Shown one piece after another: positions 3,911 through 60,443 of a DNA stretch of 60,443 bases; positions within the stretch are counted from its first letter, which is position 1, and each line of letters opens with the position of its first letter. A program made the translations under genes and the position numbers. Location of the stretch: assembly GCA_038895475.1 (NCBI GenBank), contig JAWANI010000003.1, forward strand, positions 1 to 60,443. The letters are read 5' to 3'. The notes beneath the pieces were generated by a model, which was not told where the DNA came from, searched no databases, and worked only from the letters and a program-made list of their open reading frames with translations. The DNA comes from Candidatus Woesearchaeota archaeon. GTDB lineage: Archaea > Nanobdellota > Nanobdellia > Woesearchaeales > UBA9642.

Positions 3911-5194
3911 ATGGGCATTTTAGATTATTTTAAAAAAAAAGAACCTGAAAAAACTCCAAAAATAATAGAATTGAGCAAGATAGATAAACATCTAAATCTT
4001 TTACTAAGAGAAAAATTATCATCTAAAAATAAAACAATACAACAAACAATAGAAGAAATAGAAAACATAAAAAACAACACAGAAATAAAACTTAAAGAGT
4101 TACACAAAAAAAAACTTATAAACCCAAACATACCATTAAGAGAAATACAGATAATGGAAGGAAACAGAGATAATTACATAAAAAATACAAAAAACTTTCT
4201 AAAAGAAATAAATATTCCACAACAATATCTACAAATATACGAATACACAGTAGAAATACTGGAAAAACTTGAAAATCTTTCAAAAACAAACCAAAAAAGC
4301 CATTTCATTCTAAAAGGTTTTTTCGATAATGAAATAAAAGAGATAAATAAAAATTTAAAAGATATCGAGGAAAAAATAACACAGATAAGAATATTGTTTG
4401 AAAAACAAAAAATTAGTACAATAAAAGAAATATATGAAGATGTAGAAAAAATAAAAAAGAACTATATTAAAATAAAACACATAGAACATGAAATAAAAGA
4501 AAACGAGGCTGTAATAAAAGAATATGAGGATAAAATAAAAAAAATAAATGAAAAGATAGAAACAATAAAAACAGGAACAGACTACAGGACACTGGAAAAT
4601 TTCAAACAGGAAAAAGAAAAAACAGAAACAGAAATAAAAAAAATATTCCAAGATTTTGACTCAAAATTTACAGAAATCCAGTATGCACTAAAAAAATTTT
4701 ACTATAAAAACCCCGATAAAAAAATAATAAAAAACTATATTGAAGAACCTTATAAAACATTGATAAATGATGATCAAAAACAGATAATAAACATAATAAA
4801 AGACTTAAAAGAAGATATAGAAAATATAGACCTAAAAGAAAGAAAAAAAGAAACAATAATAGAATACTTAAACAAACTTACACCCGAATATATCGATGAA
4901 ACACAACTCAAACTAAAAAAACTAGAAGACTTAAAACAGGATATACAAGCAAAAATAATACACAATTCATCCTCATTAAACATATCGGAACAGGAATATT
5001 GGATAAAAACAAACAAGGAAAAAATAAATATACATACTGAAAAAATACTAAAACTAGAAGAAGACAATTTAAGATTAAACGGAGAAAACACATTACTTAA
5101 AAAGAAAATAAAAAAAGATTTAGAATTATTAGTATACGAAGAAGTAACTATTATAGATGATTTAAGGGAATTGTTTGAAAACAAAGAACATTAA
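3911..5194 (+). CDS. Long Lys/Glu/Ile-rich coiled-coil protein with MGILDYFKKKE N-terminus
   Basis: Continuous heptad-like K/E/I/N composition over about 427 aa. An alternative upstream ATG is at 3887. No enzymatic motif. Confidence 0.6.
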   Translation: MGILDYFKKKEPEKTPKIIELSKIDKHLNLLLREKLSSKNKTIQQTIEEIENIKNNTEIKLKELHKKKLINPNIPLREIQIMEGNRDNYIKNTKNFLKEINIPQQYLQIYEYTVEILEKLENLSKTNQKSHFILKGFFDNEIKEINKNLKDIEEKITQIRILFEKQKISTIKEIYEDVEKIKKNYIKIKHIEHEIKENEAVIKEYEDKIKKINEKIETIKTGTDYRTLENFKQEKEKTETEIKKIFQDFDSKFTEIQYALKKFYYKNPDKKIIKNYIEEPYKTLINDDQKQIINIIKDLKEDIENIDLKERKKETIIEYLNKLTPEYIDETQLKLKKLEDLKQDIQAKIIHNSSSLNISEQEYWIKTNKEKINIHTEKILKLEEDNLRLNGENTLLKKKIKKDLELLVYEEVTIIDDLRELFENKEH

Positions 5195-21819: not shown

Positions 21820-21990
21820 TTTCTCCCTCCGATATGTTTATGTTTTTTATAAATTTCTTTTTAAGTTTCTTTTAGGATACTAAGTTATTTAAAAATTTTA
21901 TCATCTCTAAAAAGTAGTAATTAAAAACAGAATGATGTTTAAATAATATTAAATTAAGATTAGAATATTTCTAATTTTTAATTGATAATA

Positions 21991-22139
21991 TGCGGGGGGT
22001 AGGAAATTCGAGCAGTAAGCTTTTCGAACCCACGAAGGCACTAAGCCAACAGATATCTCAACTATTCATAACGAATAACGGATAGGCTCTGCCTCAGAGT
22101 GCTTGAGTCTGTCCCATTTGGCCACTCTGGAACCCCCGC
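21991..22139 (-). tRNA. tRNA-Leu(CAA), class II, with two introns (37/38, 47 nt; 59/60, 18 nt)
   Basis: Acceptor GCGGGGG/CCCCCGC plus discriminator A. 3-bp D stem with GG in the loop. Anticodon stem ACAGA/TCTGT with loop CTCAAG|intron|A. 15-nt variable arm. T stem GTGGG/CCTAC enclosing TTCGAA|18 nt|T. No encoded CCA. Confidence 0.75.
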
Positions 22140-22163
22140 ATAAAAAAAAGAATAAAACAAGGA

Positions 22164-22171
22164 TTTATAAA
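22164..22171 (-). promoter_or_regulatory. Candidate TATA box for the tRNA-Leu gene
   Basis: TTTATAAA on the minus strand about 24 nt upstream of tRNA position 1. Caveat: such strings are common in this AT-rich DNA. Confidence 0.35.
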
Positions 22172-22241
22172 ACTTATCTTAAATGCCATCATCTTAAAAT
22201 CTTACCAAATTATTAAAATAATGAATCATCTTTACAATTAA

Positions 22242-33123: not shown

Positions 33124-33174
33124 ATATAAAAGATAATTCTTTGAAAGAACAAAATTTAGTGGCTTAAAAATTAT

Positions 33175-33548
33175 TTAACAATTGCCGATATGGATGAATC
33201 ATTATTGTCCCGTTCATAAAAATTCATCCTATAAGCAGTATTTACTCGTAAAAACTGTGGAAGGACGGTTTTTGAAATTGCTATTCACCTCAATTTCCCG
33301 AGTCGAAAATAACAAACAATTAGTTATATTTTAAATATTAAACATAATAATTTTCATAGCAATTTCAGTTCCCAATCCTATTATGCCCACTACCAAAGCG
33401 AGTTTACTACTTATTTTTCCTATACTGCACTGTTAGATGCAAAATATAGGTGGACTCATTTTTTGAACTAACTTTATTCTCTCCTTATGCACTTTTGTGC
33501 GGATTGAATTATGATTCACCTCCGAAATCCTCCATCGGCAATTGTTAA
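33175..33548. repeat. Inverted-repeat-bounded 374-bp non-coding unit (MITE-like or closing helix of a structured RNA)
   Basis: TTAACAATTGCCGAT at 33175-33189 is the perfect reverse complement of 33534-33548. The pairing extends imperfectly (GGA, then TGAATCAT/ATGATTCA). No ORF of 60 aa or more. TA or TTAA lies at both ends. Confidence 0.45.
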
Positions 33549-33571
33549 TATGTATTCTTTGCCCTTTGTCA

Positions 33572-33638
33572 CAATCCCCATTGACGTGACTATTAGTTTC
33601 CCTCTAAGCCAGGGGCTCAGAGGGGGAGTTAAGGATTG
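33572..33638 (+). other. GC-rich compound hairpin followed by oligo-T runs
   Basis: Upper stem CCCTCT-A-AGCC/GGCT-C-AGAGGG (33600-33624), lower stem CAATCC/GGATTG (33572-77 / 33633-38). T5, T6 and T5 runs at 33654-33680. Confidence 0.35.
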
Positions 33639-33775
33639 CGTTTGAGTATGATATTTTTAGATTTTTTACAAAGTTTTTGTTGAATTGTTATTAAACCCAA
33701 CAAGATCAAACGATTGTTGATAGGATTTAAGATTATCTTTAAAGGAACTGCGTTTTGCTTCAAAGTTTAAATAAA

Positions 33776-33813
33776 CCTTCCTCTTTTGTCCAAAAGTATT
33801 TGGACTTTGAAGG
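33776..33813 (-). terminator. Hairpin downstream of the channel gene (possible terminator)
   Basis: CCTTC...GTCCAAA-agta-TTTGGAC...GAAGG, about 30 nt after the minus-strand stop at 33843, followed on the minus strand by T-rich sequence. Confidence 0.3.
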
Positions 33814-33842
33814 GTTGAAATCGTCTTAAATGTGCTTACATT

Positions 33843-34589
33843 TTACAACGATTTCTGCAATTCCTCAATAGTCCTATCCAAGTCTTCTAACTTCTCTCCA
33901 ACAATCTTGTATAATTGGTCTTGAGGCGTTGTTTTTTCAAAATACTCTTTTAGTAGTTGATTAGATTTTTTTGCTTCTAAGATTGTTGTTGTTATTGACT
34001 CTTTTTTCCAACCTGTTTTTTTCTTGTTGAATTCTTTTAACAATTCAACAAACTTTGACAAGGAGTTATTTATGCTTGCTGTCAATAATGATAATTCCAT
34101 TACTGACGTTTGGGGGTTATTTGTTTTTGTCTGATTTAATGATTTTAAGGAATTACCTATTAATAAGCTAAAATATTCAATATCCTCTGCATTTATTTTT
34201 TTGTAACCTTTTTCTGTTATTTGGTTTCTAAGTATGTACAGTTCTGTTATTGTTTTCTGTATTGTTTCTTCAAAATTTAGGGTATCTATTTTTTCTATAA
34301 TTTCATCCTGTTTTATTGACACTATTTTACCTATTATTAATCCCAAAATAAATATGCTGATTGTTGCCTCAAATATTACAAGCACCTTTTCAGTTAGTGT
34401 TGTAAAGGCGCCATTTCCTAATGTTAGGGCAGTGGTAAAGCTTAAATAAAATGCGTTGATTATGTTTTCGATGAATGTTTTTTGTGTTGTTTGTAAAAAA
34501 AGATATATTATTCCAAAAACGGTTATGTTTAAAAGCCAACAAAGTGTTAGCTCTTTGAATGTGAGTTTTTCAAATACATGAATCTTCAT
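33843..34589 (-). CDS. Two-TM pore-loop ion channel (K+-channel-like) with cytoplasmic coiled-coil tail
   Basis: TM, pore helix, then FTTALTLGNGAF filter-like segment, a second TM and about 150 aa of helical tail. Confidence 0.55.
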   Translation of the reverse strand: MKIHVFEKLTFKELTLCWLLNITVFGIIYLFLQTTQKTFIENIINAFYLSFTTALTLGNGAFTTLTEKVLVIFEATISIFILGLIIGKIVSIKQDEIIEKIDTLNFEETIQKTITELYILRNQITEKGYKKINAEDIEYFSLLIGNSLKSLNQTKTNNPQTSVMELSLLTASINNSLSKFVELLKEFNKKKTGWKKESITTTILEAKKSNQLLKEYFEKTTPQDQLYKIVGEKLEDLDRTIEELQKSL

Positions 34590-34762
34590 TTTCGTTATGG
34601 ATGTTTCGTATTAATAAAAAGTATTGGGTATAAAGGTATACGCTTTTGTATACCAATATCTAATTTAATGATATAACTTATATTTAAATATTTCGTTTTG
34701 TGCTCAAAATATATATAAAAAGAGTCATAAAGTTTAAAAAAAAGACCCATTTCTTAGAGAAA

Positions 34763-58962: not shown

Positions 58963-60443
58963 ATGCGTAAAGGACAATCTTCAAGTAGTGCTGCTGCATT
59001 TATAGCAATTCTTACTGTTCTAATAATATTGTATATATTGTTTTTACCTCCTGATATAAGAGAGGAACTGCTTAACGAAAAAAGTTCCGGAAGTGATTAT
59101 TACGATAATACTCCTCAGACAAAAACCACAACGCTCTTAAGAGAAACCGTAGGAAGAATAACTTATTATAAAGATACTGAAAAATATTACGATATACCTA
59201 CTGTAAGAATATCTACCCCTGTGTCCGGACAATTACTTAAAACAATACCTTCTTTTTTTATAAAAAACTCTTTATTTGATAAGGAACAGGCAAAATATAT
59301 AACTACATTTACTGCAGACATAACCGCCACAGAAAATGTTGTTTTAAGCTTTAATGTTAAAGAACATACAGGTCCCTTAAAAATAACTCTCAATGGAAGG
59401 GAGATATTTAATGGAGAAGTAAACAATAACAAAATAATAACCCTGCAAAGATCTGATTTAAACAACAATAATGAATTAATATTTTCAGTTCCAAATCCGG
59501 GTGTTGCATTTTGGGTAGCTAACAAATACTTAATAGAAAATCTGCAAATAACAGGCGATGTTACTGATTATAGCAATAGTTATGCTATACAAAAATTTGT
59601 CCTGACAAAAACAGAGAAAGATTCCCTAAAAGAAGTATCTCTTTATTTTAGGCCTGTATGCAGTATTTCAGAGGTTGGAAACTTACAGATAAGCATTAAT
59701 GGAGAAACAATTTATAATTCAGTTGCGGATTGCGGCACAAGAAGTTTTGTTGTTCTGGATAAAAACAATATATATTCGGGTGCAAATGAATTAAGATTCA
59801 GCACAAAAAAAGGCTCTTACCTATTAGATAATTTAAAAGTTAAAATTTCTCTTGAAAAACCATCATATAAAACATATTATTTTGATATTAACAAACAATA
59901 CTTCTATTCAAATCCTGAAAAAGCCAAATGTGGAGAATATGACAATATTTGTCCTTCTGGTTGTGCTGATATAACAGATCCGGATTGTTGTTTTAAGAGA
60001 AATGGTAATTGGTGTGCATTACCAACAAGAAACCCTAATGACAGATGTGTTTATTATGTAGATCCTTCAGATTGTGAATTATGCCCTACGGGCTATTATA
60101 ATAAAAATCGTGATGTTCCAGAAAACTGTGAAGGAAAATGTGGAGATAATACTGATGGAATTTGTCCTTCAGACTGTCCTTCCAATGCAAAATATTATGA
60201 TGCTGATTGTTGTTGGAACGAAAATCCGGACTATTATTTTTGTCAGGAAGTCCCTATAACTGGAATAATGGATAGGTGCAGGGCCTCAATAACATATTCA
60301 CAATGCGAATTATGTCCGTCTGACTATAAAAATGAGGATGGATCAAAACCTGGTTCCTGCTATGAACCTTCACAAACATATACTAATGAAGAAGAAATTT
60401 TAGATGACAAATATGATGTTGTACTAAAAATTAATTTTGTAAA
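58963..60443 (+). CDS. Large secreted protein with class III (type IV pilin-like) signal peptide and Cys-rich CGD..C..DCC modules; 3' partial
   Basis: Hand translation is open from the ATG at 58963 (AAAGGTGA upstream) to the window end. N-terminus MRKGQSSSSAAAFIAILTVLIILYILFL. Two beta-rich modules, then repeats such as CGEYDNICPSGCADITDPDCC and CGDNTDGICPSDCPSNAKYYDADCC. Missing from the ORF track because it has no stop. Confidence 0.7.
   Translation, partial: MRKGQSSSSAAAFIAILTVLIILYILFLPPDIREELLNEKSSGSDYYDNTPQTKTTTLLRETVGRITYYKDTEKYYDIPTVRISTPVSGQLLKTIPSFFIKNSLFDKEQAKYITTFTADITATENVVLSFNVKEHTGPLKITLNGREIFNGEVNNNKIITLQRSDLNNNNELIFSVPNPGVAFWVANKYLIENLQITGDVTDYSNSYAIQKFVLTKTEKDSLKEVSLYFRPVCSISEVGNLQISINGETIYNSVADCGTRSFVVLDKNNIYSGANELRFSTKKGSYLLDNLKVKISLEKPSYKTYYFDINKQYFYSNPEKAKCGEYDNICPSGCADITDPDCCFKRNGNWCALPTRNPNDRCVYYVDPSDCELCPTGYYNKNRDVPENCEGKCGDNTDGICPSDCPSNAKYYDADCCWNENPDYYFCQEVPITGIMDRCRASITYSQCELCPSDYKNEDGSKPGSCYEPSQTYTNEEEILDDKYDVVLKINFV

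Follow-up and report, generated by a model that had tools for sequence, protein, structure and literature searches.

The bacterial RNA classes OLE, GOLLD, ROOL and raiA have each opened new biology, including cages built of RNA only and membrane ribonucleoproteins (RNPs). To our knowledge, the large complex-folded non-coding RNAs of Archaea comprise only ribosomal RNA, RNase P RNA and the RNA of the signal recognition particle (SRP), and a search of the literature revealed nothing to contradict this. Here we describe an intergenic block, positions 33124-33842, in a stretch of 60,443 nucleotides (nt) of contig JAWANI010000003.1 from a Candidatus Woesearchaeota archaeon (assembly GCA_038895475.1); this whole stretch is called the window throughout. 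The block is very probably the gene for a new large structured non-coding RNA, encoded on the minus strand. Judged by comparison with related genomes, it is a conserved, highly structured and strand-specific RNA locus, present as a single copy in each locus examined and tied by position to a gene for an ion-channel-like protein. The predicted RNA matches no described family and is a candidate for a new RNA class, not a transposon or a dead gene.

The intergenic block and its relatives

The window is an A/T-rich archaeal fragment, in which the genes near the block are gyrA and those for an M32 carboxypeptidase, a two-transmembrane (2-TM) protein with an Ion_trans_2 domain, the wyosine enzyme Taw1/TYW1, a pyrophosphatase and prolyl-tRNA synthetase. 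An earlier note on this DNA had singled out the block as free of open reading frames (ORFs) of at least 60 amino acids (aa) on both strands, and with 719 nt it is indeed the longest such gap in the window; the accompanying statement that other spacers measure at most about 390 bp was slightly off, as a true gap of 422 nt lies at 21820-22241. The enrichment in GC ascribed to the block is confirmed locally (35.2% over 33181-33660, close to the 35% counted by hand, and 45.5% over 33560-33660), but it is modest relative to the window (32.3% vs 28.4%), and 13.6% of 374-nt segments equal the core in GC. The A/T-rich core at 33305-33360, with a GC content of 14%, is as described.

The most conspicuous feature of the block is an inverted repeat: TTAACAATTGCCGAT at 33175-33189 is, exactly as had been reported, a perfect 15-nt complement of 33534-33548, and the pairing is extended by TGAATCAT/ATGATTCA. 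Nested in it is a perfect 12-nt pair (33273-33284/33356-33367). No second copy of TTAACAATTGCCGAT occurs in the window at up to two mismatches. The minimum free energy of the 386 nt spanning the unit (33170-33555) is -117 kcal/mol for the minus strand (z = -9.4 against dinucleotide shuffles) and -92 kcal/mol for the plus strand (z = -7.0), and none of 100 shuffles folded as well as the unit.

Searches of Rfam 15 with the whole window gave no match at gathering thresholds, and at E ≤ 10, with slices of about 400 nt from the window and from the related loci L002 and L030, with five slices in all, only chance matches of the snoRNA/miRNA type; a check against Rfam, proposed in the earlier note, identified no family. 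ARAGORN detected neither tRNA nor tmRNA, plasmid and phage collections searched with blastn gave no match, and a scan of viral contigs with a loose pattern revealed no homologue among the 120 stretches listed. No description of the RNA was found in the literature, with the reservation that Rfam and the open-access literature are not exhaustive.

Relatives were found by several routes. A protein-anchored scan yielded two genomes in which the genes are arranged alike and the gap is longer still; these gaps align with the window block by block, and both arms of the repeat fall within conserved blocks. When metagenomes were scanned for an internal motif, 15 matches were returned, three of them true homologues (L005 = L017, and L009), all located between gyrA and the channel gene. 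Contigs carrying close homologues of Taw1 added L020/L021, L022, L024, L025, L026 and the divergent L028, and contigs with more distant homologues of the channel protein added L030 and L031. The comparison covers 13 loci: the window, L002, L003, L005 (= L017), L009, L020/L021, L022, L024, L025, L026, L028, L030 and L031. The closest relatives of the window are metagenome-assembled genomes labelled Woesearchaeota.

In all 13 loci the element occupies the same site and is co-oriented with the channel gene, whose stop codon it follows at a distance of 23-31 nt; nhmmer finds a single match in each of them, the window included. Among loci with the element the identity of the neighbouring proteins drops to 35%, and the neighbourhood varies: the M32 gene is present or absent, gyrA occurs with or without an intein, L028 and L031 have extra genes, and in L031 Taw1 does not adjoin the element. 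The linkage of the RNA with the channel gene holds even where M32, Taw1 or the extra neighbours differ. No copy was detected within the 10-21 kb of DNA examined in L027 and L029, which encode Taw1 proteins 71-74% identical in a non-syntenic context, or in L032, which encodes a distant paralogue of the channel protein.

Two further observations concern these contigs. L002 (CAZQDS010000025.1) is titled 'uncultured Methanosarcinales archaeon', and its gene order, proteins (74-82% identical) and RNA are common to contigs labelled Woesearchaeota; the Methanosarcinales label is probably an error of binning or classification. An intein (Intein_splicing) interrupts gyrA in L009 (805-4470), L017 (9504-13361, with a LAGLIDADG domain) and L026, and is missing from gyrA of the window, L002, L003 and L028.

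Covariation, strand and the nature of the inverted repeat

RNAalifold applied to three sequences predicted 107 pairs, of which 35 show double changes that compensate each other. For an alignment of 11 sequences, the unalignable tip of a long arm was replaced by an artificial GAAA and the sequences were realigned, which gave a consensus of 79 pairs in 14 helices with 93.6% of the cells forming standard pairs, compared with 35-40% when the partners were slid by 1-3 columns. Changes on both sides affect 31 pairs, as against 5-14 in the slid controls and 11.6 +/- 2.6 in shuffles; none of 500 shuffles, a control that ignores phylogeny, reached any of the observed measures of covariation. The analysis of covariation in syntenic relatives that had been suggested earlier therefore gave a positive answer. 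The divergent subclade L028/L030/L031, folded separately, shows the same architecture, namely a rod-like core of about 330-450 nt closed by the helix formed of the 15-nt repeat.

In the relatives, the two arms of this repeat read GCAAUUGCCGA/UCGGUAAUUGC (with G·U), GUCGA/UCGAC, GUAUCGA/UCGAUAC or GGUGUCGA/UCGGCACC; in L028, L030 and L031 they are GUAUCGA/UCGAUAC or GGUGUCGA/UCGGCACC, not GCAAUUGCCGA/UCGGCAAUUGC. Since the helix covaries across relatives and the divergent trio folds alike, what had been taken for terminal inverted repeats is the helix that closes the RNA.

The earlier note had considered a miniature inverted-repeat transposable element (MITE), and the unit does share with MITEs derived from Tc1/mariner or IS630 a length of a few hundred bp (374) and perfect 15-bp inverted ends adjoining TA/TTAA. 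A mobile element would not be expected, however, to share one insertion site in 13 diverged genomes, and the multiple copies that would betray a MITE were not found: there is one copy in the 60-kb window and one per related locus, and the metagenome scan returned syntenic copies only. The arms differ among loci while preserving their complementarity, often by means of G·U pairs, a feature without meaning for the ends of a DNA element, and the flanks are not conserved. The plasmids, phages and viral-contig stretches mentioned above contain nothing similar. We therefore attach a virtually negligible probability to a MITE or a remnant of another mobile element; unlike a MITE, the element occurs once per locus at an orthologous site, and its two ends change in the manner of an RNA helix.

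Covariation also speaks to the strand. Read as the minus strand, the paired cells contain 65 G·U and 19 A·C combinations, a ratio that an RNA from the plus strand would reverse. A T5 run at 33166-33170 (minus strand), a likely archaeal transcription terminator, follows the closing helix; among the 13 loci, ten have a T5-T9 run 0-11 nt past this helix, L003 and L031 have T4 runs, and L028 has no T run close by. The plus strand of the window shows no comparable T run after the closing helix. The RNA is assigned to the minus strand because G·U greatly outnumbers A·C, the minus-strand fold is the more stable one and an oligo-T run lies 3' of the closing helix. The earlier alternative of a structured RNA with paired ends was consequently right in kind and wrong in strand and extent: the 'downstream hairpin and oligo-T' taken for its 3' end fall in 33549-33842, which on the minus strand is an upstream 5' domain. 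The adjacent hairpins noted at 33251-33272 and 33274-33297 and the direct 9-mer ATTCACCTC do exist in the window; they are specific to it, and in the relatives the corresponding bases sit in long-range helices.

The same data bear on two explanations that involve no RNA, together extremely improbable in our estimate. A feature acting at the level of DNA, such as a replication origin or regulatory palindromes around an A/T-rich unwinding core, would accord with nested inverted repeats flanking a core of 14% GC and with gyrA nearby; but the approximately 14 helices each have their own sequence with no repeated box motif seen, G·U is distributed asymmetrically between the strands, conservation is lowest in the A/T-rich core (which in L028 is 36 nt long and not A/T-rich), and no orc1/cdc6 gene adjoins the block. 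A decayed foreign gene, also proposed earlier, could leave short ORFs, and four of 32-50 aa are present, including the one of 44 codons pointed out before; however, none has a Pfam match at E ≤ 1, so the 44-codon ORF exists without support for its being coding, indels in the alignment are not multiples of three, and conservation tracks helices, not codons.

Parts of the RNA and its neighbourhood

The full conserved locus, as delimited by alignments and nhmmer, extends over 33166-33813 on the minus strand and comprises the 5' domain, the rod-like core and the terminator. Its 3' two-thirds adopt the shape of a rod, which the 15-bp helix closes, with two side hairpins and a long arm ending in a variable A/U-rich tip; the strands joining the parts of the rod (AAAGUUAG, GGAAAAAUAAG and GGGACAAUAAU) are strongly conserved, and the 5' third consists of a series of conserved hairpins. 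The parts of the core and then those of the 5' domain are given below, each set in minus-strand order, with plus-strand coordinates.

The core starts with the 5' arm of the closing helix P1 (33534-33548, the right-hand repeat of the earlier note), paired with the 3' arm at 33175-33189 (the left-hand repeat). It is followed by a purine-rich asymmetric bulge, GGAGGAUUUCGGA (33521-33533, from alignments); in most relatives this region has AGGAGGAAAGAGAAG and an extra helix AGAUC/GGUCU, which covaries as read directly from the alignment rows. The 5' strand of helix 2, GGUGAAUCAU (33511-33520, helices 3-4 of the consensus), pairs with 33192-33202 and is replaced in relatives by AACCAU/AUGGUU, GACUAU/AUAGUC or GGCUAU/AUAGCC. 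The side hairpin H_A (33476-33510, helices 5-6) is 97% paired with double changes in 6 of its 11 pairs; its tip GCAC-AAAA-GUGC is the hairpin GCAC-TTTT-GTGC noticed before on the other strand, which is located at 33489-33500 and kept in all relatives. The joining strand AAAGUUAG (33468-33475) is invariant in 13 of 13 loci and leads into a short helix GUUC/GGAC (33468-33465 with 33210-33207). The second side hairpin, H_B (33419-33453, helices 8-9), has a loop CUAACA at 33431-33436, invariant but for the first position (C, U or A).

The 5' strand of the long arm (33356-33418, helices 10-14) contains the conserved A-rich junction GGAAAAAUAAG and a bulge, and pairs with the 3' strand at 33231-33284; this pairing takes in the 12-nt perfect repeat. 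Between the strands lie the variable A/U-rich tip (33306-33355, the 'AT-rich core' of the earlier note), whose length in relatives is 36-133 nt and whose sequence is not conserved, and a small hairpin CGACUC-GGGAAAUU-GAGGUG with a loop motif GGGAAA(A)A(G) (33286-33305). The core is completed by 33192-33211, composed of the invariant junction GGGACAAUAAU (33211-33201) and, after it, the 3' strand of helix 2, and by the 3' arm of P1. In all 13 loci the tetranucleotide GUUA within AAAGUUAG is the complement of UAAC in the loop of H_B, which suggests a pseudoknot, and the invariant junctions with this probable GUUA/UAAC contact would produce a compact tertiary core. No convincing K-turn or tetraloop-receptor motif was recognized, and the closing helix contains no bulge-helix-bulge, so it does not qualify as a processing stem of the kind that generates circular RNA.

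A side observation concerns the motif (C)GGGAAAAAGAG, which in the main clade is part of the long-arm tip (33286-33305 in the window) and in L028, L030 and L031 belongs to the 5' domain; in that domain the main clade has a similar second motif, UGGGAAAAG. The motif may be a module for docking or protein binding that can change its place.

The 5' domain covers the 290-650 nt from the channel stop codon to the closing helix and consists of conserved blocks with variable hairpin insertions between them; in the window it folds with z = -4.1. With this domain the element totals 0.64-1.0 kb, and the distance from its first hairpin, U1, to the end of the closing helix is smallest in the window (639 nt) and 743-1017 nt in the relatives. 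U1, CCUUC-AAA-[GUCCAAA-UACU-UUUGGAC]-AAAAGA-GGAAGG (33776-33813), is present in 13 of 13 loci and begins 29 nt past the channel stop codon in the window (23-31 nt across the loci); its inner stem covaries, with AAA/UUU replaced by AGG/CUU, AAG/UUU or AU/AU. Right after U1, at a conserved position, comes an A/U-rich box, UUUAUUUAAA (33766-33775), which reads CUUAUGAAAA, CUAUAAAUAG or CUAUUAAAAC in relatives and may be the archaeal TATA box of a promoter specific for the RNA. Hairpin U2, UUGUUG ... CAACAA (33677-33703; GUUUUGAAAUUG...CAAUUCAAC in relatives), exhibits compensatory changes in L028 and has weaker support in L030 and L031. The single strand ACGCAAUCC (33633-33641) is invariant in all 13 loci and lies within AAAGUAUUCACGCAAUCC in relatives. 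Hairpin U4, CCCUCUGAGCC-CCU-GGCUUAGAGGG (33600-33626), is perfect over 9-12 bp in 13 of 13 loci, and its stem has at least six different sequences among them, all perfectly paired. It is followed by hairpin U5, GUCAC...GUGAC (33568-33590; AGUCA...UGACU in relatives), and by GGCAAAGAA (33555-33563), a block conserved in the alignment that precedes the core.

A repeated hairpin module (GCUAAAGU-...-ACUUU...UUCA.G) was also noticed in the 5' domain, at 4955-5160 (minus strand) of L002 and at equivalent places in L005, L009, L022, L024, L025, L028, L030 and L031. It is absent from the window, L003 and L026, occurs once in several loci and about twice in L002, ahead of the invariant AAAGUAUUCACGCAAUCC. 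To judge from these copies, the RNA appears to grow by duplication of the module.

The RNA would be transcribed from the end of the channel gene, or from the TATA-like box at 33766-33775, to the oligo-T at 33166-33170; it might be initiated separately, some 25 nt beyond the box, or be part of a channel-gene transcript that continues through it and is then processed. It would be made with, or just after, the channel mRNA and would act as a stable trans-acting RNA or as a processed 3' product of the channel transcript. This arrangement raises the question of whether the element is instead a cis-acting structured 3' untranslated region (UTR) of the channel mRNA, serving its stability, localisation or regulation. 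Its location on the same strand, 23-31 nt past the stop codon in every locus with no T run between the stop codon and U1, would agree with a 3' UTR, and so would the fact that the sole consistent terminator follows the closing helix. On the other hand, at 0.64-1.0 kb the element equals or exceeds the coding region of 0.75-0.9 kb, its covarying helices number at least 14 and its junction strands are invariant, and the conserved TATA-like box between U1 and the remainder suggests a separate start. We know of no element of such size and complexity in an archaeal 3' UTR and consider this explanation unlikely.

The invariable neighbour of the RNA, upstream and co-oriented, is the gene for the 2-TM ion-channel-like protein (Ion_trans_2; 33843-34589, minus strand), which has a helical C-terminal domain. 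This domain of about 150 aa is all-helical and conserved and has no informative structural match. A comparison with the homologues of L002, L003, L005, L009 and L028 shows a degenerate K+ selectivity filter: some relatives have TLGYG, the window has TLGNG, L003 has TIGSG, and L005 and L028 have TIGYN. The divergent promoter region of 110 nt between the channel gene and Taw1 contains an imperfect palindrome, TTGGGTATAAAGGTATAC-GCTTTT-GTATACCAATA (34624-34664), which by its form may be an operator.

Elsewhere in the window, the 422-nt ORF-free gap at 21820-22241 harbours a GC-rich island of about 150 nt (21991-22141, minus strand), whose ends pair over 7 bp (5' GCGGGGG ... CCCCCGC-A 3') and which contains a T-loop-like GGGUUCGAA and a D-loop-like AGAGUGGCCAAAUGG. 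A box TTTATAAA lies about 25-32 nt upstream of it (22164-22171, minus strand), and the island folds with z = -3.2. ARAGORN and Rfam find nothing in the island; by its features it looks like a tRNA gene with one or more non-canonical introns, and tRNA genes with such introns are common in DPANN archaea. At the end of the window, a long ORF with a signal-peptide-like N-terminus and a Cys-rich C-terminal part (58964-60443, plus strand) runs off the edge; the region falsely seems ORF-free in the gap listing because the ORF is open at the window end.

Possible role and comparison with known systems

The compact core proposed above could serve as a scaffold that binds protein to form an RNP, whose partner might be the adjoining membrane protein, the one candidate to which the data point, in the way OLE RNA acts with OapA. 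We favour such an OLE-like scaffold over other roles, though only tentatively. The channel protein found no support as an RNA binder: its C-terminal domain is not basic (pI 5.4-8.0), its AlphaFold2 model (pLDDT 84.5) is a helical bundle, and Foldseek searches of this model against the PDB gave nothing at E ≤ 0.001 and no resemblance to RNA-binding proteins, the pore region alone resembling NaK. These results weigh against our interpretation, as do several other points. What connects the RNA with the channel protein is position. The evidence comprises 13 sequences from one clade, in which several key motifs, both strands of the putative pseudoknot among them, are invariant. Part of the alignment was spliced by substitution of the tip, L028 is imperfectly aligned in places, and the shuffle control carries no correction for phylogeny. 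Finally, we infer the expression of the RNA, its 5' end and any processing from the DNA.

DPANN archaea have tiny genomes, and the retention of an RNA of 0.64-1.0 kb with invariant junctions in such genomes implies an important function. The family also shows that annotation based on Rfam misses major RNAs in this lineage, and it offers a concrete target that can be synthesized for structural, ribozyme or RNP assays.

Among the universal RNAs, archaeal RNase P RNA (RF00373) resembles the new RNA in the size of the core (about 330-450 nt), the helix closing its 5' and 3' ends, a second helix nested next to it, an apparently single copy and vertical inheritance, and the strands GAGGUAAACCAU ... 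ACAAUAAUGGUU loosely recall CR-I/CR-V of its helix P4. Archaeal SRP (7S) RNA (RF01857) is likewise a rod with paired ends and a three-way junction with two arms. The RNA could in principle be a highly derived form of one of them. No RNase P or SRP covariance model matched, however, either at the gathering score or at E ≤ 10 in the 400-nt slices of the window, L002 and L030. Whereas P4 of RNase P is built of the near-invariant CR-I GAGGAAAGUCC and CR-V ACAGAA..GGCUUA with a bulged U, the analogous helix here (GAAUCAU/AACCAU/GACUAU/GGCUAU) is fully paired, varies freely with compensation and has no bulged U; CR-I to CR-V are missing, a purine-rich bulge takes the place of the hairpin P3, which RNase P has between P2 and P4, and the order of sub-domains is reversed, a small hairpin preceding the large branched stem, whereas in RNase P the large stem of the specificity domain comes before the P15 stem inside P4. 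In comparison with SRP RNA, the molecule is much longer owing to the 5' domain, it lacks helix-8 and helix-6 motifs and GNAR tetraloops, and its conserved loop is CUAACA; its distal tip (36-133 nt) is the most variable part, whereas helix 8 is the most conserved part of SRP RNA. Descent from either RNA is in our view very improbable.

GOLLD, ROOL and raiA-type RNAs are alike in being large orphan RNAs supported by covariation and discovered by comparative genomics in long intergenic regions. They differ in that bacteria or phages carry them, frequently in association with mobile elements, whereas the RNA described here is chromosomal, syntenic and archaeal and, by the Rfam searches, resembles them in neither sequence nor structure.

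By analogy, the closest counterpart in kind is OLE RNA (RF01071), which functions with OapA in Bacillota, although the RNA shows the features of membership in neither OLE nor any other family. OLE RNA is bacterial and not archaeal (DPANN); no covariance-model, Rfam or sequence similarity connects the two; and the genes around our locus are gyrA and those for the M32 peptidase, the Ion_trans_2 protein and Taw1, not oapA, oapB or oapC. The RNA lies downstream of its neighbour and OLE upstream, the 2-TM channel-like protein is unrelated to OapA, and the linkage here is positional only. Both RNAs are nevertheless about 0.6-1 kb long, ornate and composed of many helices with conserved junction strands, both are confined to a single clade, both are co-oriented with and genetically tied to the gene of a membrane protein, and the function of neither is obvious from its sequence. 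It is conceivable, though far from assured, that the RNA of the window founds a new class of large ornate RNAs, which would be the first one restricted to Archaea, and has a biochemical role of its own, acting as a ribozyme built on the invariant junction/pseudoknot core or, together with the adjoining channel-like protein, as the RNA subunit of a membrane RNP that would be the archaeal counterpart of OLE.

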